From an uncultured Gemmatimonadales bacterium (lineage in GTDB: Bacteria > Gemmatimonadota > Gemmatimonadetes > Gemmatimonadales > GWC2-71-9): a DNA stretch of 64,000 nucleotides. The translations under genes were made by a program, and so were the position numbers. The notes beneath the pieces were generated by a model. That model was not told the origin of the DNA and made no database searches. It worked only from the letters and a program-made list of their open reading frames with translations. Positions 32,016 through 42,998 of this stretch are shown piece after piece; position 1 is the first letter of the stretch, and every line of letters starts with the position of its first letter. The DNA lies in contig CAWGED010000004.1 of the NCBI GenBank assembly GCA_963821525.1, forward strand, positions 128,001 through 192,000, given 5' to 3'.

Positions 32016-32333
32016 TTACAACGGCTTCAATTTCGCCAGCACCTCCGCCACCACTCCCGCAGGAACCCTGCATGCCAGCTCCGCCTGTCGAGCTTCCCAA
32101 TCGGCGCTTCGCAGGTGATCGGCCAGGACCACGCCCCGAACCGGCAGGTCGTCGGGCAAGGCGACCTCGAAGGGATAGCCCTTCGCCGAAGGGGCGATCG
32201 CGCACATGAGAGCCAGTCGCGCCCTGCTGTTGTAGTGCGCCGGCGAGACCACGAGCGCGGCGCGGCGCGCGACCTTCTGCCCGTTATCAGGCTCGACCGT
32301 CACCCACACTACATCGCCTCGGTCCGGCGTCAC
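32016..32333 (-). CDS. mazF: PemK/MazF family toxin (active-site motifs degenerate)
   Basis: PDRGDVVWV, ALVVSP..YN, KGYPFEV, GVVLAD.LRS.DW.AR. Confidence 0.85.
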   Translation of the reverse strand: MTPDRGDVVWVTVEPDNGQKVARRAALVVSPAHYNSRARLALMCAIAPSAKGYPFEVALPDDLPVRGVVLADHLRSADWEARQAELACRVPAGVVAEVLAKLKPL

Positions 32334-32569
32334 ACGACCTCACGCCCGACCGGCTTACCCCAGTCGGTTTCACCGTGACGGTTCTCTGGCGTGATCTGAT
32401 CGGCCAACTCCTCGAGCCCATACTCCCGGCCTAGGGGAGTCAGGACGATGCGACCGCCGGAGACACTGATATCAACCTCAGACCCCTCGGCCAAGCCCGT
32501 TTCCAGACTGAACGCCTTGGGGATTCTGATTCCCAAACTATTACCCCACTTCGAGATACGTGCGCGCAT
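32330..32569 (-). CDS. mazE: AbrB/MazE family antitoxin
   Basis: ISKWGNSLGIRIPK...ITPENRHGETDWGKPVGREV; GTGA overlap with the toxin. Confidence 0.92.
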   Translation of the reverse strand: MRARISKWGNSLGIRIPKAFSLETGLAEGSEVDISVSGGRIVLTPLGREYGLEELADQITPENRHGETDWGKPVGREVV

Positions 32570-32584
32570 CAGATGCGACCATGT

Positions 32585-32626
32585 TGTATATACATTGAAG
32601 ATACGGACAATGAATGAGTCGGTCAA
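32585..32626 (-). promoter_or_regulatory. mazEF promoter and palindromic operator
   Basis: TTGACC-N17-TATCTT followed by the TGTATATACA palindrome. Confidence 0.75.
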
Positions 32627-32650
32627 GTTGTATCGTGCGTTTTCTCGAAC

Positions 32651-32679
32651 TGGACGCGATCCCGCCACCATTCTAGCTT
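32651..32679 (+). promoter_or_regulatory. Candidate promoter for the metal-uptake island (near-leaderless)
   Basis: TGGACG-N17-TAGCTT, 8 nt before ATG 32688, no SD. Confidence 0.5.
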
Positions 32680-32687
32680 CGATCCCC

Positions 32688-33029
32688 ATGCGAGCTTCTA
32701 GTCGCCGCCGCTCGGCGCTCACCCTGCTGGTCGTGGTCCTCCTCGGGGGGATCATCATGCCGGGTGTGGATGCCATACTGTTCCACGGACGCGGCGCCGG
32801 CACAACCTTCGGAGCCCGCCTCGAAGCCACCAGTAGCGGTGAGCATGCAGTTCAGTGTCCCCAGGCCGACCAGCTTCGCAGCGGTCGCGCCCTCGCCGCG
32901 ACTCCGCCTCAGACCAACACCGCGCCTCCGATTGGAATCGCGGTCATCGTTTGCAACACTCCTCTCCTGCTCTCCACTCCGGTCCATACTCCGGTACTCC
33001 CTCGCGCACCGCCGTCGCTCCTCGCCTGA
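32688..33029 (+). CDS. RAPP-motif leader/arrest peptide 1 (DUF2946/CruR-like, 113 aa)
   Basis: Basic then hydrophobic N-terminus, DAILFH, HAVQC, Pro-rich linker, LPRAPPSLLA*; paralogue at 36411. Confidence 0.75.
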   Translation: MRASSRRRSALTLLVVVLLGGIIMPGVDAILFHGRGAGTTFGARLEATSSGEHAVQCPQADQLRSGRALAATPPQTNTAPPIGIAVIVCNTPLLLSTPVHTPVLPRAPPSLLA

Positions 33030-33103
33030 TCAGCTCATTTCCCGATAACTGATTAACCAGTCCGGTCACGGCTTCTTTCGGCCGGATCTTGCTCTGGAGT
33101 TCT

Positions 33104-34468
33104 ATGACAGACCGCTCACGTTGTGCGGTCCTCCTGTTCGTCCTCCTCATGGCGAGGTGGAGGGATCGCCAAACGCGCAGGTTCCCGATTCCGCTCTCGG
33201 CGCAGTCCACGCGCTGAACGCGCGGCTCGACTCTCTGGAGGCGGGGACCTGTCCCACGGGACCGGCGGTTCAAATCCCGGTCCACCCTACTGGTGCACCG
33301 GGAGCAGACAGTCTTGCATCAGCCCTCGACCAATTGAATCAGCGCGTCGAGAAGCTCGTAGCCCAACGTTGCCTGGGAGCCGCACCCGATACCACAACCG
33401 ACGACCTCGCGGCGTTGCGGGCGGCCGCCGACTCCGCCGCAGGACGGCCGGTTTCGGCGCCGAAGGACACCACGGCCGCCGGCGGCACCGAGTTCATTGG
33501 GCGCCAGCGCAACGGCTCAGCCATGAATCCGGAAATCAGCGCCACGGGGGACATTCGGCTCATCGGGGAGGACGGCACCGAGCATTTCAAGGCGACAGGC
33601 GCGGGAATTCGAGGTGGGGCTGCAGTCCACTCTGGATCCCTACTCAACCGCCAAGGTCTTCCTGACCTTCGAAGACGATCACGTCGGAGCGGAGGAAGGC
33701 TATCTGTACTGGACCGGTCTGCCCGGGCGGATCAGGGCGGACGTGGGACTCTTCCGGCAACAGGTCGGCGACCTCAATCGCTGGCACCTCCATGCGCTCC
33801 CCGAATCGGAGTACCCGCTGGTCTATCGCCGCTATTTCGGCGACGACGGATTATCGGGCGTAGGCCTCTCGCTCTACACCGCCCTCCCGGTTTCCCTGGC
33901 ACACGGCACCCACGAGATTTGGTTCCAGGGAACTTCGGCCGAGAGCGATCCGCTCTTCGGAAGCGACCACCACACCACCCTCTTAGGCCGGCTCCAGAAC
34001 TTCTGGCAACTGAGCCGGAGCACCTATGGGCAGATCGGATTCACGGCATTCGGGGGAGACAACTCCGACAGCGCGCTTACCAGCCGGGTACTGGGCCTCG
34101 ATGCCCGGCTGACCTGGCGTCCACCCAATGCCGGCACCCGGCAGGACCTTACCCTGAGAGCCGAAGGCTATCAGTTCCATTCCACCGAGGCGGGTCTCAC
34201 ACAGACTCGTTACGGTGGCTTTATTGACGCGGCGTTCCGGGTTAGCCAGCGCTGGATCCTCGGCGCCCGTTACGACTACGTCGAAACACCGCGGGGCCCT
34301 GATACGAATGAATGGGGAATAGCACCCGCCATTACCTGGTGGCAGAGTGAGTTCGTGTATCTCCGGCTGGAAGGGCAGCATCTCGACAACAGCGTCAACG
34401 GCACCGACAACCGGGTTCTGCTCCAGGCGGTGTTCGCCATGGGCCCCCACAAGCATGAGACCTACTGA
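33104..34468 (+). CDS. Outer-membrane beta-barrel metal-uptake porin-like protein (frameshifts near 33160 and 33605)
   Basis: TGGAG RBS, signal peptide, coiled coil, MNPEISA.GD, G.LN.WH.HALP, WWQSEF..LRL, C-terminal GPHKHETY. Confidence 0.75.
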
Positions 34469-34469
34469 T

Positions 34470-35557
34470 ATGATTCTCGCCCTTCTCGCCATCGCTACCG
34501 GCATCTTCGCCGAGCCGCCCAGTCATTATCCTGCCGAGCCACCGAGCCGCCGAGCCGCCGAGCCGCCGAGCCGTCCTGCCGCCGCGCCGCTCAAGATCGT
34601 CACCAGCCTCACGACCTACGGCGCCATCGCGCGGGAGATCGCCGGCGACCGCGGCACCGTCACCTCCATCGCCCAGGGCGACGAAGACCCGCACTTCGTG
34701 CAGCCCAAGCCGAGCTTCGTGGCGCTGCTCCGCGACGCGGACCTCTTCGTCACCACCGGGCTCGACCTCGAGCTCTGGGTTCCCGCCCTCCTCGACCGGG
34801 CCAACAACCGAAAGGTCTTGGAGGGGGGCCGGGGTACGTCGCGGCCTACACCGGCATCACGCTGCTCGAGGTCCCGACCAGTTGAATCGGGCGCAGGGGG
34901 ACATTCACGCCGACGGCAATCCCCACATTCACACCGATCCGCTGAATGGGATCATCATCGCGCGGAACATCCTCACCGGCTTGACCCGGGTCTCGCCGGG
35001 AGATGCCGGCTACTTCACCGATCGGGAGAAGGATTTCGAGAAGCGGGTTCTCGAGGCCACCATGGGGCAGGAGCTGGTCGGCATCCTGACTCCCGCCACC
35101 GCGTTCGACCTGCTCAAGACCGACAAGCTGTTCGACTTCATCGGTCGCACCAAGTATCAGGGCAAGCCGCTCGCGGATCAGCTCGGCGGCTGGCTCAAGC
35201 AGGGTGAGGTGTTCCGGGGGAAGGAAATGGCCTGCTACCACAAGGAGTGGGCCTATTTCAGCAACCGCTTCCAAGGTCACCTGCGCCACATACATCGAGG
35301 CCAAGCCGGGCATCCCGCCGACCCCGAAGCACGTGGAGGAGGTCATCGCGCTCGATGAAGGAGCGGAAGATTCCGGTGCTCTTCGCGTCCAACTACTTCA
35401 ACCGCTCGCAGATCGAGCAGGTGGCGGACAAGACCGGCGCCAAGGCAGTGATCGTGCCGGAGAACACCCACGGCGCGCCGGGCATCGAGACCTACTTTGA
35501 CCTCATCAACGCCTGGGTCTCCGGCCTCGGCTCGAGCCTACAACGGAGGGCGTCTGA
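34470..35557 (+). CDS. Metal ABC substrate-binding protein (ZnuA/TroA cluster; several frameshifts)
   Basis: EDPHFV.PKPS, GDIHADGNPH..TDP, YHKEW.YF, IEAKPGIPPT.KH. Confidence 0.85.
34510..34572. repeat. Octamer (GCCGAGCC)n array inside the coding sequence
   Basis: Direct reading; encodes AEPPS..AEPPSRRAAEPPSRP. Confidence 0.8.
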
Positions 35558-36403
35558 TGCTCGACCAGTTGTGCACACTCTGGCTGCCGCCGCTGGTGGC
35601 CTGCATGGTCATCGTGGCGATCCATTCGTATCTCGGACTCCATGTCATCGCGCGCGAGGTCATCTTCGTGGACCTCTCGCTGGCGCAGATGGCGGCGCTG
35701 GGATCCACCATTGCCATTTTCGCCGGCGCCGATCCCGATTCGACTCGCAGCTTCGCCTATGCCCTGGGCTTTACCACGCTGGGTGCCGCGCTGTTCGCGC
35801 TGACCCGCACCGGCAATCACGGGCGGGTGCCTCAGGAGGCGATCATCGGCATCGTGTTCGTCGTTGCCTCCGCAGCCGCCATTCTGGTGGCCGACCGGTC
35901 GCCGCGGGGCGGCGAGGCAATCAAGGACATCCTGGTGGGGAGCCTGCTCTGGGTGGGCTGGCCGGCGATCGGCCGACTGGCGGTGGTCTATCTCCTCGTC
36001 GGGCTCTTTCACTGGGTCCTGCGGAAGCGGTTCCTCACCATTTCCTTCGAGCCGGAGGTCGCGATCGCCAAGGGGTGGAACCTGAGCTGTGGGATTTCCT
36101 GTTCTATCTCTCGTTCGGCCTGGTGATCACCTTCTCGGTGCCGATCGTCGGAGTGCTGCTGGTCTTCTCCTTCCTGGTGGTCCCGGCGGCGATCGCATTT
36201 CAGTTTGCCCACGGCAGGGGGCGCTGGCGATTCTCTCCTGGCTGGCCGGTGTGATTTCCTCGGCGGGCGGGCTCTGGCTCTCGTTCCGTTACGATCTGCC
36301 TACCGGCCCGGTAGTGGTCTGCGTGTTTGGTCTCCTGCTCCTGCTTGCCTACACGGCTCGAAAGGTCATGGGGGTCGAGAGTAAGAGAGCGGTTCCAGCG
36401 TGA
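35557..36403 (+). CDS. Metal ABC transporter permease (ZnuB/ABC-3; frameshifts near 36085 and 36220)
   Basis: YLGLHVIAREVIFVDLSLAQ.AALG, EAIIGIV, GVLLVFSFLVVPA, DLPTGP. Confidence 0.88.
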
Positions 36404-36410
36404 GTTCGTG

Positions 36411-36752
36411 ATGCGTCGGCTGCAAGTTGGGTTTCAGGCGCTGTGTGCCGCCATTCTTCTGGTGGCGGGCAGTGCCTTGCCGACGTACGACGCTATTTGC
36501 TATCACGGCGCTCGCTTCCCGGATCGTGGACAGGTCCGGATCGAGGCGGCCACCGGTGGTACCGCGCACCTCCTGACCTGTGCCCTTGGGCGCCAGTTCC
36601 AGCGCTCGAGGGCAGTGCTTCCACATTCCGCACCAACACGGTGGTTGCCTCGGACGGCGCCTATCACGCCGCTCCCTCCGCCGCCGGTCGCTCCCCCTGC
36701 GCCGGCTCCTACCCTTCAACGATCGCGCGCCCCTCCAGTCCCCATCGCCTGA
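36411..36752 (+). CDS. RAPP-motif leader/arrest peptide 2 (DUF2946/CruR-like, 113 aa)
   Basis: Hydrophobic N-terminus, DAICYH, HLLTC, Pro-rich linker, RSRAPPVPIA*. Confidence 0.75.
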   Translation: MRRLQVGFQALCAAILLVAGSALPTYDAICYHGARFPDRGQVRIEAATGGTAHLLTCALGRQFQRSRAVLPHSAPTRWLPRTAPITPLPPPPVAPPAPAPTLQRSRAPPVPIA

Positions 36753-36797
36753 TCTCCTGGTGATCAGCTGATATCGCCGCTTTCCGGTCCTGCCGGG

Positions 36798-36828
36798 GAG
36801 ACGGCCTTCTTGGACATGGGAGGGTCTC
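36798..36828 (+). promoter_or_regulatory. RBS-sequestering hairpin ahead of the TonB-dependent receptor gene
   Basis: GAGAC/GTCTC and CCTTCT/GGGAGG pairing buries the SD immediately before ATG 36829. Confidence 0.65.
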
Positions 36829-39084
36829 ATGCATTGGTTTTTTCTAGCGGTCACTGTGCTGTCCGCGGGCGACGGCCCCGCCGTCTCTGCACCCACACCA
36901 GTTGCGCCGCGCAGTCTCATGGGACGGGTTACGACCAAATCCGGTCAGCCGGTCCTCGATGCCCGGGTGCTGGTTGTTGAGCTGCGTCATTCGGTCCAGA
37001 CCGATCCGGATGGGCGGTACAAGATTCCGAACCTGAATCCCGGCAGCTATACCGTCTCCTTCTCGCAGATCGGCTATGCCCCGGAAACCCGCCGGATCAC
37101 TCTGGGGGACAGCGATCTGACGCTCGACGTTTCACTAAAAGAGTCGCTAGTCGAATTGCCGCCAATTCAGGTCACAGCGACGCCCAGCGCAACCGAACCT
37201 CTGACCTCCCCGCAGCCTACGGCGGTGGTCGAAGGCGAGGATCTTCAGCGCGCACAAGCCTCAAGCTTGGGCGAGACGCTCAATCAAGTGGCGGGTGTCC
37301 ACAGCCTCAGCACCGGAGTCGGGATTGGGAAACCGGTGATTCGCGGGCTCACCTCGAACCGGGTCCTGATTCTGGATGACGGCCAGCGACTCGAGACGCA
37401 GCAGTGGGGCGATGAGCACGGTCCCAACCTGGAAACGGCTGGCGCAGAGCGGATCGAGGTGATTCGCGGGCCGGCCAGTGTGCTGTACGGCTCCGACGCA
37501 TTGGGCGGCGTCGTCAACGTGATTCAGCCCCCTCTTCCCGTAGCCACAGAGGGCCATGGGCCAGTTGAGGCGCAATTGAGCGCCTCATACGGAAGCAACA
37601 ACCGGCAACCCAATGGCGCGCTCAGCATCGCCGGAGCGAAGGGCGGCTTCGGATTCCGAGGAACGATCAGCGGGCGGCAGAGCGAAGACCTTCAGACTGC
37701 GAACTACGAGTTGTGGAACAGCGGCAACGAAGCCGTCGGCGGGAGCGGAACGGTGGGGTATCGCGGGTCCTGGGGGTCCGTTGCCGGCACGATTTCGCAG
37801 CGAAACGAAAAGATCGAGCTGACCGACGAAGATCCCTTGGCGACACCGCTTCAGCGGATCGCCACGACCCGAGGGAGGGTGAACCTCACCTTGCCGATCT
37901 CCGGGGCACGGCTGGAGCTGGCGGGCGGTTACGAACGCAACCGGCGGCGGGAATTCGAAGACAAGTTCACCTCCGACGTTGCGCTTGGCCTGCTGTCCCA
38001 GAATTACACCCTGGACGCCCGCTATTACCACGCTCCCTGGGGGTCAGTGCACGGCATCCTCGGCGTCTCGGGTGGCCACCTCGCGTTCGACAAGTTTGGT
38101 GAGGAGACGCTCATTCCCAACAACCGTACCAACACCATCGGGGTCTACGGATTCGAGCAGGTCACCCTGGGTCGCTGGGATCTTTCGGTCGGTCTCCGCT
38201 ACGACTATCGCCACCTTGATGTAGATGAGGACGCCGTGATAGCTGTGACCGCTCAGACCAGGAACTGGAATGCCTTGACGGGCAACTTGGGAGCACTATA
38301 TCGCCTGGCCGATCCGGTTGCGCTGGTACTGAACGTGGGACGCGGATTTCGCGCCCCGTCGAGTTTCGATCTGTTCTCCAACGGAGTGCACGAGGGAACC
38401 GTGGCCTTCGAGCGTGGAAACCCGAATCTCAACACGGAAAAGTCGCTCAATACCGATCTCGCCCTGCGGGTGCAGACCGCCAATGTGGCCCTAGAGCTGG
38501 GTGGGTTTCTGAATCTGATTCAGGATTACATCTACAGCGTCCCCACTGGAGCTACCGATCCCGCGTCGGGCTTTCAGATCTATGACGTGACCCAGGGCGA
38601 TGCGCGACTCACCGGGCTCGAGGCGGCGGCGCAGTATCACCCCACCGCATGGCTGCACTTGCAGGGAACCGCCGACTACGTCTACGGGACGAATACATCC
38701 ACCGGCAATGCTCTGCCGGCCATGCCACCATTCCGCGCTACCTACAGCGTGCGGCTCGAGAGCCGGCGGCAGGGTTTCCTGCATGTGCCCTATCTTTCGG
38801 TCGGCGGCGAAAGTAACGCGCAGCAATCACGGCAGGATCCCGCGGAAGCCGTGTTCTACAGCCAAGCCTTCGGCGGCCAAGGCTACCAATCGGAAGCCTA
38901 TACTTTGATCAATGCTGGGACGGGATTCGGTCTCGCTGCTGGTGCGAACGATGTGCATTTCGATTTCACGGTCCGCAACGTCTTCGACAAGGCTTACGCC
39001 GACTATTTGAGTCGCATCAAGACCAATGCGCTGAATCCGGGCATGGGCCGGAGCTTTGTCATGCAGGTGAGTACCGCGTTCTGA
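36829..39084 (+). CDS. TonB-dependent receptor with N-terminal carboxypeptidase-regulatory-like domain
   Basis: KPVIRG, QQWGDEHG, IEVIRGPASVLYGSDALGGVVN, GFRAP, NGVHEG, C-terminal F. Confidence 0.95.
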   Translation: MHWFFLAVTVLSAGDGPAVSAPTPVAPRSLMGRVTTKSGQPVLDARVLVVELRHSVQTDPDGRYKIPNLNPGSYTVSFSQIGYAPETRRITLGDSDLTLDVSLKESLVELPPIQVTATPSATEPLTSPQPTAVVEGEDLQRAQASSLGETLNQVAGVHSLSTGVGIGKPVIRGLTSNRVLILDDGQRLETQQWGDEHGPNLETAGAERIEVIRGPASVLYGSDALGGVVNVIQPPLPVATEGHGPVEAQLSASYGSNNRQPNGALSIAGAKGGFGFRGTISGRQSEDLQTANYELWNSGNEAVGGSGTVGYRGSWGSVAGTISQRNEKIELTDEDPLATPLQRIATTRGRVNLTLPISGARLELAGGYERNRRREFEDKFTSDVALGLLSQNYTLDARYYHAPWGSVHGILGVSGGHLAFDKFGEETLIPNNRTNTIGVYGFEQVTLGRWDLSVGLRYDYRHLDVDEDAVIAVTAQTRNWNALTGNLGALYRLADPVALVLNVGRGFRAPSSFDLFSNGVHEGTVAFERGNPNLNTEKSLNTDLALRVQTANVALELGGFLNLIQDYIYSVPTGATDPASGFQIYDVTQGDARLTGLEAAAQYHPTAWLHLQGTADYVYGTNTSTGNALPAMPPFRATYSVRLESRRQGFLHVPYLSVGGESNAQQSRQDPAEAVFYSQAFGGQGYQSEAYTLINAGTGFGLAAGANDVHFDFTVRNVFDKAYADYLSRIKTNALNPGMGRSFVMQVSTAF

Positions 39085-39090
39085 CGGATG

Positions 39091-39118
39091 AGGGCGGGGC
39101 ACTGCTGTGCCCCGCCCT
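39091..39118 (+). terminator. Perfect 12-bp hairpin after the receptor gene (terminator or mRNA stabiliser)
   Basis: AGGGCGGGGCAC-tgct-GTGCCCCGCCCT; weak U-tract. Confidence 0.65.
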
Positions 39119-39165
39119 ATTCCACTAAATTCACCCCCTCACCCTTTTCGTACAGGAGTTTGCCC

Positions 39166-39549
39166 GTGTCGGTTCGTTCTGGTCTTCTGGCTTCACTCGC
39201 TGCGGCCTCGCTCGTTTCTGTCGCTGCCGCGATGCACACTCACCTGGTCAAAGCCGAGCCTACCGTGGATGGCACGATCACGGAGGCCCCCAAGCAGGTT
39301 CGCCTCTGGTTCAACGAGCGGCCCGAGGTGGCGCTTTCCTCCGCCGCGCTGCTCTCCAGCGATAGCGCACCGGTTGCCCGGATCACTCTGGGGAAGACGG
39401 ACGATTCCTTGAGTGTCGCGGGTTCGATCCCGGTGAGCCTCGCCCCCGGCGGATACATCGTGGTCTGGAAGACTGGTTCTGCAGATGGTCACCCGGTACG
39501 CGGGTCCTACAAGTTCACTTACTCCGCTCCGACTGGCGCCAGTAATTGA
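39166..39549 (+). CDS. copC: Copper resistance protein CopC
   Basis: AGGAG RBS, signal then HTHLVKAEP, LWFNE, SADGHPVRG. Confidence 0.9.
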   Translation: MSVRSGLLASLAAASLVSVAAAMHTHLVKAEPTVDGTITEAPKQVRLWFNERPEVALSSAALLSSDSAPVARITLGKTDDSLSVAGSIPVSLAPGGYIVVWKTGSADGHPVRGSYKFTYSAPTGASN

Positions 39550-39550
39550 C

Positions 39551-40505
39551 GTGGACCATCAGGTCGCCGCTCTTCCGCTCGACCTCTACGCCCTGGCCCG
39601 CTGGATCGCGTACACCGCGACCATGGTCACGATCGGTGGCGGCGTCTGTGCCTGGCTGCTCGGGAGAATCCCCGAACGCGATGGTAGGAGTAACCTAGCC
39701 CTCGACGCAGCCCGCGAGACAACTTGGGGGCTGGCACTTGCGGCGCCGATCGTTCTGATCGGCGCCCATTTGCTTCGGCTCTACGGGCAGGCGCGGGCCT
39801 TCCTCGAACCGGCCGAGCCCATCACGTCCGACGGAGTCCATGCCATCGTCGCCGGTACCACGTGGGGGCGAGGCTGGATCGTTCAAATCTCCGCCGCGAT
39901 CGCTGCCGCCATCCTCCTCGCCGCGGCTCGCTGGCGAACTAATCGGAACGGACCCAAAGTCCCGGCGGAAGCCGTTGTGGCGGCGTTGCTGGTTGCGTTC
40001 GCCTCGCCGCTTACCGGACACGCGATGGAAAACCCCTGGGGTCGGGTCGCCGGTGTGTCGCTTCACGGGCTGCACCTTCTCGGCGCCGGAGTCTGGCTCG
40101 GCACTCTGTTTGTGCTCTTCATGGCGGGGTTTCGCGGCGTGCGCGAGGGTGGCGCCTTTGAAGGCACCGCACTGCTCGCCCGCCTGGTGCGGGCCTTCTC
40201 GCCCCTCGCCCTGAGTGGTGCCTCGGTCGTAGTGGGAGCCGGCGTGCTGCTCGGGGTGGCCTACGTGGGAAGCCTCGAGGCACTCTGGGGTACTACTTAT
40301 GGAAAGACGCTCTTGATCAAGATCGCGCTGCTCGCTGTCACCGCGGCGTTGGGCGCGTATCACTGGAAATCTCTCACGCCGCGGCTCGATTCCGTGCAAG
40401 GCGCTTCCGTCTTTCGCGGGTCCGCGGCCGTCGAGCTGACCCTGCGCGGCCCTCCTGCTCGGCGCTACCGCGGTCCTCGTTGCTCTGCCGGCCCCCAAAC
40501 TATGA
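39551..40505 (+). CDS. copD: CopD family copper uptake membrane protein (frameshift near 40445)
   Basis: LTGHA, LHLLGAGVWLGTL, TTYGKTLLIK; restored end ...LVALPAPKL* overlaps the next ATG. Confidence 0.85.
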
Positions 40506-41128
40506 CTACCGCAACAGCCTTCCGTTCGGTCGCCTTGCTTCTCGCACTCCTGGCTTGCGACCAGAAACCTCAGACCTTCAATCCGTCAGGACTCGCGGGA
40601 CCGTCGCTTGGCCAGGCGATTCCCAAGCCCGACTTCACGCTCACCGCGACCGACGGATCGCAGTTCAATTTCCGCCAGCAGACCGAGGGCAAGATCGCGC
40701 TGCTCTTCTTCGGCTATACCCATTGCCCGGATGTCTGTCCGGTTCACCTCGCGAACATCGCCGCGGCACTCCACACCCTCGATCCCGAGGTCCAGCGGAA
40801 GGTGGAAGTCGTATTCGTCACCACCGATCCCGACCGCGATACGCCGGAGGTCATCCGCGCCTGGCTCGACAAGTTCGACCCGAAATTCGTCGGTCTCCGG
40901 GGCACTCTGGACGAGGTGAACGCAATCCAGCGGGGACTCAAATTGGGTGAAGCGTCGCGGGAGCCGCAGCTGGCGCCGGGGGACACGGGCTACAGCGTTG
41001 GCCACGCCGCGATCGTGCTGGCCTTCACACCCGATGACTCGGCGCACGTGGTCTATCCCTTCGGGGTGCGCCAGTCCGACTGGGCGAAGGACCTGGAACT
41101 CCTGGCCAAGATGACGGGACCCGCGTGA
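40502..41128 (+). CDS. SCO1/SenC copper chaperone lipoprotein
   Basis: LLAC lipobox, FFGYTHCPDVCP, DPDRDT, YSVGH. Confidence 0.92.
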   Translation: MTTATAFRSVALLLALLACDQKPQTFNPSGLAGPSLGQAIPKPDFTLTATDGSQFNFRQQTEGKIALLFFGYTHCPDVCPVHLANIAAALHTLDPEVQRKVEVVFVTTDPDRDTPEVIRAWLDKFDPKFVGLRGTLDEVNAIQRGLKLGEASREPQLAPGDTGYSVGHAAIVLAFTPDDSAHVVYPFGVRQSDWAKDLELLAKMTGPA

Positions 41129-41575
41129 TTCGACGCCTGCTCGCCGGCGGTGCTCCTCGTCTGTTGGAGCTGCGGCAAGCCGGCACCGCCGACCCTTAAT
41201 GCAGAGTTCGGCAACATCCGCATCACAGGCGGGTTCGCGTATTCCCCGATCACCCAGGAATCCGGTGCGGCCTACTTCACGATCCGCAACACCGGCGACA
41301 AACCGGATACACTCGTGTCGGCCCAGTCTCCGATCGCAAAGTCGGCGATGATTCACGGAACGATGCAGTCCGAAGGCGCCGCCGGGATGGCGAGGATCGA
41401 ACGGCTTCCCATCCCTCCCGGTGAAGAGGTGACCCTCAAGCCTGGCGGGACGCATCTGATGCTCGAACAGCTCAGCCGACTTCCCAAGCCCGGTGAGCGG
41501 ATGCCTGTCGTTCTCATCTTCAGTCGAGCGGGCACGGTCACCCTGGAACTTCCGGTCAGGGCCTACAACGAATGA
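41125..41575 (+). CDS. Copper chaperone PCu(A)C (N-terminal frameshift likely)
   Basis: AAYFTIRN, MIHGTM...GM, LKPGGTHLML. Confidence 0.9.
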
Positions 41576-42411
41576 CATGGTGGTGCTCGGCTACCGGCCA
41601 GCCTTGGACCTGGGCCTGGAAGGCCTATCCCGGCGTGTGGCTGTTCGTGGCACTGCTCGCCGTCCTGTACCTGCGTGGCATCCGCCGAGCCGACCGAGCC
41701 TGCGCGAGCCGCCGAGCCGCCCTCTACTACTTCGCCGGCCTCCTCACCGTCTGGCTCGCGCTCGACTGGCCGATCGGCCCGCTGGGTACCGGCTACCTGA
41801 TCAGCTTCCACACCGTCAGCTACATCCTCCTGAGCCTCATTGCCCCACCTCTCCTTCTGGCCGGCATTCCCAGCGAGGTGATGCTGCGTGCCGCTCAGGC
41901 GCCTCGTGCGGGCCGGTTGCTCAGAATCCTGACCCGGCCGCTCATCGCGCTTGCGCTGTTCAATGCGATCCTCATCGGCACCCACATTCCGGATGTAGTC
42001 GATGGGCTGATGAGGTCCCAGCTCGGCGCCTTCGCCATCGACCTGGCGTGGTTCCTCGGCGGGATCGTTCTCTGGTGGGCGATCATGGCTCCCCCGCCGG
42101 TGTGCCGCCTGAATCGCCCTATGAAGATGGGATACCTCTTCGCTGCGACACTTCCACCGATTCTCCCGGCGGCCTTCCTCACCTTCGCCGATTACCCGCT
42201 CTACGCGGTGTACGAGCTCGCCCCGCGGGCATTCGATCTCCCCGCCCACTCCGATCAGCAGATCGCGGGTCTCACCATGAAGATCATCGGCGACCTTCCC
42301 CTCTGGTTCGCCTTCGGGGTGATCTTCTTCCGCTGGGCTCGCGAGTCGGGCGGCTCCAATCCGGTACATCCAAGCGTGGCCCAGCAGAGCGCTACCGGTA
42401 GCGCCGCTTGA
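41572..42411 (+). CDS. Cytochrome c oxidase caa3 assembly factor (CtaG_caa3 family)
   Basis: DWPI..L..YL.S.H....LL...APPLLL.G, DQQIAGL.MK. Confidence 0.85.
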   Translation: MTWWCSATGQPWTWAWKAYPGVWLFVALLAVLYLRGIRRADRACASRRAALYYFAGLLTVWLALDWPIGPLGTGYLISFHTVSYILLSLIAPPLLLAGIPSEVMLRAAQAPRAGRLLRILTRPLIALALFNAILIGTHIPDVVDGLMRSQLGAFAIDLAWFLGGIVLWWAIMAPPPVCRLNRPMKMGYLFAATLPPILPAAFLTFADYPLYAVYELAPRAFDLPAHSDQQIAGLTMKIIGDLPLWFAFGVIFFRWARESGGSNPVHPSVAQQSATGSAA

Positions 42412-42998
42412 AGCTTCATCTGGTGCGGCACGGCCCCGCCCTCGACGCCGACGGGCGAGCGATGGGCCACACCGACGCTCCGTTGTCTCCCGAAGGGATC
42501 GAGCAGGTCGCGCGACTGGTCACGGCATGGCCGAGAACTCCGAGCCGAATCTGGTCGAGTGATCTTCGTCGCGCGCGGGAAACAGCCGAGCGGATTGGTC
42601 AGCGTTGGGATGTGGCGCCGGCAATCGATGCGCGGCTTCGCGAGATGAATTTCGGAGAATGGGATGGGCGCTTCTGGAATGCGCTCGAGCGGGAGGATCC
42701 CGACCGCCTCAAACACTGGATGGAGAGCTGGGTAACCGAACGAGTCCCCGGCGGCGAGTCTTTCACCCTCTTATCAGAGCGGGTTCGCGACTGGTACGCC
42801 CGATGCCTCGCCGACCCGGCTGAGGAAATCGTCGTTGTTGCCCACGCCGGGAGCATTCGAGCACTGCTCTGCAATCTGCTGGAGGTTCCGCTCTCGAAGG
42901 CGTTCGAGTTCCCGGTCGATCGACTACGAATCTCTACCGTCGAAATCGCCGAATCCGGGGCCCGGCTGCTGGCCTTGAACAGTCCGGAGGTTCTCTAG
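42408..42998 (+). CDS. Histidine phosphatase family protein (CobC-like)
   Basis: LVRHG, SSDLRRA, LREMNFGEWDG, PGGES, VAHAGSIR. Confidence 0.9.
   Translation: MKLHLVRHGPALDADGRAMGHTDAPLSPEGIEQVARLVTAWPRTPSRIWSSDLRRARETAERIGQRWDVAPAIDARLREMNFGEWDGRFWNALEREDPDRLKHWMESWVTERVPGGESFTLLSERVRDWYARCLADPAEEIVVVAHAGSIRALLCNLLEVPLSKAFEFPVDRLRISTVEIAESGARLLALNSPEVL

Follow-up and report, generated by a model that had tools for sequence, protein, structure and literature searches.

In an uncultured Gemmatimonadales bacterium, a ribosome stalled at the RAPP motif of a short leader ORF probably covers codons that otherwise hide the ribosome-binding site (RBS) of the TonB-dependent receptor gene downstream, permitting receptor translation. 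The locus lies in a 64,000-nucleotide stretch of contig CAWGED010000004.1 that was analysed as a whole (hereafter, the window). We establish here that the last leader codons are complementary to the receptor Shine-Dalgarno (SD) region, that this complementarity co-varies among relatives, and that an HxxxC motif and RAPP occur together at fixed spacing. The fold and the drop in opening cost under a masked footprint are predicted by RNA folding. By analogy with known arrest peptides, we infer that the ribosome stalls when Pro-Pro occupies the P and A sites and that metal binding by HxxxC frees it.

The leader (Table 1) consists of a hydrophobic signal-like N-terminus, D27, the HxxxC motif (which reads HLLTC), a Pro-rich linker, RAPP and a four-residue tail. 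The N-terminus is basic and then hydrophobic in the leader and its relatives, and may be a Sec signal peptide. An ORF of the RAPP type precedes 123 of the 134 receptor loci that have upstream DNA. Among 65 aligned leaders no variation occurs at C57, R106, P108 or P109, and hardly any at D27, H53 or A107. Of the 70 representatives, 68 carry HxxxC, 46-49 residues ahead of the RAPP arginine, and seven carry CxxC. The HxxxC region is a putative metal binder. From the toeprinting of CruR (PMC12992588), the ribosome is predicted to stall with the proline codon at 36732-36734 in the P site.

A leader homologue with 79% identity belongs to a Gemmatimonadales bacterium according to NCBI. The leader-family profile matches 136 of 251 genomes of the phylum and retrieves two real leaders in the source genome, both inside the window; a genome-wide list of RAPP or RGPP sequences before a stop codon (359 six-frame matches) was discarded as too unspecific. 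The window leader did not match PF11162 (DUF2946) at E ≤ 0.1 or 1, nor did anything else genome-wide, and 14 of its 65 relatives matched this model weakly (best E 0.0012); two of the 65 matched the CzcI model, also weakly. The leader is DUF2946-like, and a member neither by profile nor by CxxC. It does have one feature of the CruR family, RAPP four residues from the C-terminus at a fixed spacing from the putative metal motif. It also has three of the properties by which CutF-like leaders are recognized in PMC9973294: a length of 113 aa (<150), Pro-Pro at residues 108-109 (at most 15 residues from the C-terminus), and a same-strand neighbour that begins 76 nt after the stop codon (<1000). Rfam returned no match at E ≤ 1 over 32300-37200, and no σ70-type promoter was found within 36200-36950. 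In two RNA runs, compared as contigs only, word shares were 0.12 and 0.07, and one 171-nt piece was identical to the leader.

Table 1. Features of the leader-receptor locus (window coordinates; folding energies are predicted, in kcal/mol)
Feature	Position	Strand	Remarks
Leader ORF, 113 aa	36411..36752	+	start codon inferred; ends ...RSRAPPVPIA*
HxxxC motif (H53-C57), putative metal site	36567..36581	+	48 residues before Arg of RAPP
RAPP codons CGC GCC CCT CCA	36726..36737	+	
Anti-SD strand CCCTCC-A-GTCC, CCCTCCAGTCC	36731..36741	+	third base of an Ala codon, the Pro-Pro-Val codons and the opening base of the next Pro codon
Enclosed hairpin 1	36744..36772	+	-10.2; spans leader stop codon
Enclosed hairpin 2	36776..36805	+	-20.8, p about 1.0; contains GAGAC
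Helix 3' strand GGACATGGGAGGG	36812..36824	+	contains SD GGAGG 36819-36823; receptor ATG at 36829
Weak SD/AUG hairpin CATGGGA/TCTCATG	36815..36831	+	-6.5; predicted only with long helix open
TonB-dependent receptor, 751 aa	36829..39084	+	carboxypeptidase-regulatory-like domain, plug, barrel

The first-pass annotation of this DNA had proposed that the RAPP codons are complementary to the SD region with two bulges. The coordinates were verified, and both strands were paired in the minimum-energy fold of all five fold windows that contain them. The GUCC/GGAC part had a pairing probability of 0.98 in all five; for the CCCUCC/GGAGGG part, three folds gave about 0.87, the whole-leader fold 0.77 and a 107-nt fold 0.62, the predicted range for folds of at least 160 nt being 0.77-0.98. 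The long helix is predicted to contribute -15.2 kcal/mol beyond the two enclosed hairpins and to close a three-way junction, and two registers are allowed, one with two bulges (-45.1) and one with a 1x3 internal loop (-46.2). The SD strand is complementary to the 3' end of the genome's own 16S rRNA, UCACCUCCUUU, and CCCTCCAGTCC is unchanged in all four close relatives aligned. Taken alone, the match at this locus is not significant, since synonymous recoding of RAPPVPIA* equals the pairing about half the time (p = 0.51) and 9 of 315 other 24-nt leader windows pair equally well or better.

It had also been suggested that a local GAGAC/GTCTC hairpin buries the SD. The hairpin formed by GAGAC (36798-36802) and GTCTC (36824-36828) has a predicted energy of -12.9 in isolation; in the folds, its probability did not exceed 0.023 in four folding states and 0.022 in four close relatives, because its bases are held by the -20.8 hairpin at 36776-36805. 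The folds thus do not predict the GAGAC hairpin. Only when the 5' strand was masked did its inner CCUUCU/GGGAGG part (0.42) and a CAUGGGA/UCUCAUG hairpin (0.56), the latter absent from the earlier annotation, appear. In an inverse switch, opening of the long helix would free this second hairpin as a terminator or SD block, and stalling would turn the receptor off. One terminator-like match is indeed present at 36815-36831, but shuffled sequences yield 0.8 such matches, the hairpin is worth only -6.5 and it is altered in three close relatives; we consider the inverse switch extremely improbable.

Proline codons are C-rich, and any GGAGG might pair with them by chance. The value of p = 0.51 at the window locus (L001) and the finding that 42 of 70 representatives have a CTCC in the 24-nt window upstream of RAPP would agree with such a reading, which was weighed against the whole family. 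The receptor loci numbered 149, from which 15 without upstream DNA and 11 without a RAPP leader were subtracted. The resulting 123 leaders comprised 108 distinct ones; one of these (L017, with WAPP and 33% identity) was removed, leaving 107, and the start of another (L036) was moved by hand. The 107 distinct loci correspond to 70 clusters at 70% identity, each with one representative.

Across the 70 clusters, the 24 nt beginning with the Arg codon paired with the -24..-1 region of their own receptor gene at -16.9 kcal/mol and with swapped regions at -13.9 kcal/mol (z = -9.2). Two upstream 24-nt control windows gave z values of -0.9 and +0.4 in the same clusters, and other targets gave -1.1, -0.7 and -2.0. 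Counted from the Arg codon, the cognate signal was strongest in windows 0-18 and 12-30. On the receptor tree, 34 disjoint sister pairs were untied, and in 27-29 of them (five draws; sign p from 4e-5 to 8e-4) the cognate pairing was the stronger; both flanking controls were null in this comparison. Real codons outdid synonymous recodings in 61 of 70 representatives with leader codon usage and in 55 of 70 with receptor usage. CCT encodes the first proline in 51 of 70, whereas its background share is 9% in leaders and 6% in receptors, and among other Pro-Pro pairs of the leaders it is found in 7 of 48. The 24 nt before RAPP have no cognate preference, and nine off-gene matches from a pattern scan described below gave no signal (z = -0.3). 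Thus, for the family the chance reading is largely refuted, and we hold it to be very unlikely overall.

The strand said to be masked was that of the RAPP codons themselves. What is conserved is wider than this: the partner of the SD core lies on the RAPP/Pro-Pro codons in only 24 of 70 representatives; 23 have it on the tail or the stop codon, and in the other 23 the SD core does not pair with the footprint, its partner being elsewhere, ambiguous or absent. For the RAPP codons alone the sister-pair result was inconsistent (p 0.02-0.26), and for Pro-Pro plus two codons it was consistent (p 0.001-0.02). Since the partner falls on either Pro-Pro or the tail and the RAPP-only result is unstable, the conserved feature is an anti-SD inside the presumed stalled footprint, and the window locus is of the Pro-Pro type. 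Taken column by column, covariation at the Pro-Pro register is weak, with p 0.02-0.03 (uncorrected) in 2 of 15 columns. CCT is still common (14 of 23) where the tail serves as the anti-SD, which leaves room for a different cause behind some of the codon bias, and a compensation of non-CCT loci by a CTCC in the tail was not significant (11 of 19 versus 17 of 51, p = 0.10). In a large clade ending in RAPP-x-Leu-Ser-stop (L035, L051, L052, L070, L128 and relatives), CTCTCCTGA pairs with CAGGAGAG over up to 12 contiguous base pairs, and the peptide tail of this clade may be fixed by RNA pairing.

The stall was mimicked by a 27-nt mask at the predicted stall position, and the cost of opening 36813-36831 was computed. 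In the window the predicted cost falls from 15.9 kcal/mol in the free RNA to 9.3 kcal/mol with the footprint masked; for 40 ordinary GGAG genes of the genome the median is 8.4, and 2 of the 40 reach 15.9. The minimum is obtained with the P site at 36729-36747. Among the 107 loci, footprint-SD pairing of at least 4 bp was present in 77 full folds, and under the stall mask the opening cost fell by over 1 kcal in 71 loci, compared with 14 for a mask placed 12 codons upstream. The proposed shift of the folding equilibrium by a RAPP-stalled ribosome is supported by this predicted drop, except that the SD does not become bare: in the stalled state it is predicted to keep weak local hairpins. The proposed translational coupling would be a gating of initiation at a distance of 76 nt and not a stop-start arrangement. 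Cognate-versus-swapped pairing, sister pairs, codon bias and the position-specific opening cost all support sequestration of the SD by a strand within the presumed stalled footprint.

A ribosome terminating at the leader stop is predicted to free the helix as well as a stalled one (median costs of 9.5 and 9.6 over the 107 loci); it follows that stalling would act by dwell time. The same equality suits a constitutive coupling in which the helix is real, any ribosome passing or terminating at the leader end opens it, and stalling and metal add little. So does the signal in DUF2946 leaders (below), which sits in the tail and stop (z = -6.7) and not in RAPP (z = -1.7). Against such coupling stand the near-invariance of RAPP and HxxxC at fixed spacing and the finding that RAPP hinders translation in published tests (PMC12992588), and the tail codons lie within the stalled footprint in any case. 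We give constitutive coupling little credence and retain a RAPP-stalled ribosome as the probable agent.

Replicate sets were assembled with downstream starts chosen by SD strength, some of which are probably wrong. A paralogue set of 111 loci was reduced by 17 duplicates and three loci without RAPP near the stop. Within it, the signal recurred in 22 paralogous leaders ahead of a porin-like gene (z = -4.1) and in 18 leaders belonging to another family (z = -3.4). Two groups were unsupportive: 25 further loci of the same family, with z = -2.2 beside a control of -2.4, and 14 distant loci (z = -1.8, pairing in 1 of 14 folds). The leader family also heads genes for outer-membrane efflux proteins (OEP, PF02321; 9 of 14 downstream proteins scanned, at L165, L179, L224, L225, L228, L232, L240, L245 and L258), so that it serves operons for import as well as for export.

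A pattern scan for CPxC...RAPP-xxx-TGA, limited to a fixed Arg codon, a three-residue tail and TGA, gave 120 matches, of which 59 were usable after removal of 25 off-frame matches, 28 without a downstream ORF and eight long ORFs. PF11162 was matched by 38 of the 59 at E ≤ 0.001 (35 above the cut-off), 34 of them non-redundant. These 34 DUF2946 leaders, mostly proteobacterial, gave z = -5.5 and paired over at least 4 bp in 20 folds. The 18 proteins scanned downstream included nine with a TonB plug, two PCuAC, two DUF1775 and five without a match. In eight of these leaders (L268, L270, L291, L296, L324, L326, L331 and L332) the stop region reads CCTGA or TCTGA, and its recurrent pairing partner is a TCAGG or TCAGA that lies in the SD region or immediately ahead of it. 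The 21 pattern loci without a Pfam match gave z = -3.4 (control -2.3); split by eye, 12 leader-like loci gave -3.2, the other nine being the off-gene matches mentioned above. That a codon-embedded anti-SD helix is the general output of CruR/DUF2946-type RAPP leaders across phyla, driven here by an HxxxC zinc sensor, is a serious possibility to which we would nevertheless commit only tentatively. If true, it would explain the long hairpin-rich spacers and the tails of 3-4 residues, and Rho termination would become a downstream consequence.

In an attenuation of the CruR type, the C-rich rut site would be protected by the stalled ribosome, and the helix would play a minor part or do no more than set a pause. 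This accords with the C-rich 3' third of the leader (C exceeds G across 36550-36807, peaking at C 0.55 and G 0.21 around 36670-36747), with a full-length rho gene above the family cut-off on contig C5 of the genome, and with the action of CruR through Rho (PMC9426467). A second Rho-like gene (G000:C8:261938-263047) lies below the cut-off (460 bits). A rut site, however, needs C-richness and not complementarity to the SD of its own gene, and the cognate-specific pairing is left unexplained; moreover, Rho attenuation and SD gating can work in series. We therefore regard Rho attenuation as the primary output as unlikely, and SD gating by the stalled footprint as the probable one.

As to the metal, the only solved relative of the receptor at E ≤ 1e-20 is ZnuD. 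No NCBIfam cut-off was reached among the 25 matches listed for the receptor, and a cluster look-up of four receptors found none. Directly 3' of the receptor, at 39088-42998, are copC, copD-SCO, PCuAC and ctaG genes and one for a CobC-like phosphatase. Copper as the default ligand was demoted, CopC being encoded downstream in 5 of the 66 loci with at least 600 nt (the copper cluster is rare among relatives) and an ABC-3 permease upstream in 22 of 107. Zinc is favoured because of the ZnuA/ABC-3 genes upstream and the receptor's likeness to ZnuD; it is most likely the metal sensed, with copper second.

The second leader of the family in the window (32688-33029, +; HAVQC, RAPPSLLA*) heads genes for a porin-like protein (ATG at 33104), a binding protein of the ZnuA type and a permease of the ABC-3 family, and in its predicted fold the SD pairs with an upstream CUCCGG and not with the footprint. 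Each of the porin-like, ZnuA-like and ABC-3 genes (33104-36403) is broken up among different reading frames, and a single ORF (39485-41128) joins copD to SCO; frameshifts or faults of assembly seem to be the cause. A small gene pair on the minus strand at 32016-32830, divergent from the window's first leader, is presumably of the MazE/MazF (PemK) type, and a palindrome, TGTATATACA, lies near 32586-32595.

The proposed course of events would be as follows. In the free RNA, the last leader codons would pair with the receptor RBS and close a three-way junction that hides it, the two stable hairpins bringing anti-SD and SD together over the 76 nt. A ribosome would stall at RAPP with Pro-Pro in the P and A sites, as CruR and other RAPP peptides suggest, and would cover the anti-SD codons, so that the receptor is translated. 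Binding of metal by the nascent HxxxC region would release the stall. Receptor synthesis would then be switched on when metal is short and off when there is enough, and Rho termination would be a possible consequence of an untranslated receptor gene. The codons would be under double selection, Pro-Pro written as CCU-CCN spelling an anti-SD.

CruR (Bp2923, DUF2946/PF11162) precedes the TonB receptor BfrG in Bordetella pertussis (PMC9426467). It shares with the window leader a small exported product, a Cys motif some 45 residues ahead of the RAPP near its C-terminus, a short tail, a long structured intergenic region and a TonB receptor downstream; it differs in having CxxC, in contrast to HxxxC and the lack of a PF11162 match in the window leader. 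CruR has been explained by Rho termination, the long spacing being called incompatible with translational coupling, and the searched text of that report holds no SD-sequestration model for it (PMC9426467). CruR is the sole studied RAPP metal leader that we found in the literature searched, and it is explained there by Rho alone. RAPP/RGPP uORFs before TonB receptors and copper genes are described as widespread in Gram-negative bacteria (PMC12992588) and share the class and genomic context of the window leader. As far as its searched text goes, that report does not settle if, or in what way, arrest controls the gene downstream, and 'stem-loop', 'Shine' and 'secondary structure' do not occur in its main text.

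SecM, uDF_RQH and CutF are established cases in which a stalled ribosome unmasks an SD, and the logic itself is textbook. In SecM-secA and uDF_RQH-secDF2 the stalled ribosome disrupts an SD-sequestering stem-loop (PMC7897499, PMC10987492); these leaders differ from the window leader in being secretion monitors with local stem-loops. For ApcA, ApdA and ApdP, the authors of PMC7897499 report that they found no hairpin of this SD-sequestering kind. In CutF-cutO of Rhodobacter capsulatus, a stalled ribosome unfolds a stem that hides the next SD, the leader senses metal and an anti-SD mutation relieves the block (PMC9973294, PMC8456105, bioRxiv 10.1101/2025.02.05.636593). CutF has CxxxC, a poly-Pro stall and a stem described within a 40-nt intergenic region, whereas the window anti-SD is inside the coding footprint and its helix is predicted to enclose two hairpins. 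Copper makes CutF stall, whereas metal would release the stall in the window leader. Computation alone finds here, as in the SecM/CutF type, an RNA stem that would sequester the downstream SD and overlap the stalled footprint. In the literature searched, mainly open-access main texts, we found no long-range helix between RAPP-footprint codons and a downstream SD; as predicted here, this codon-embedded helix is a variant of the SecM/CutF-type logic new to those texts. A covarying footprint-SD helix would provide a mutation-testable mechanism for control by arrest, to which spacers of 70-130 nt are no barrier.
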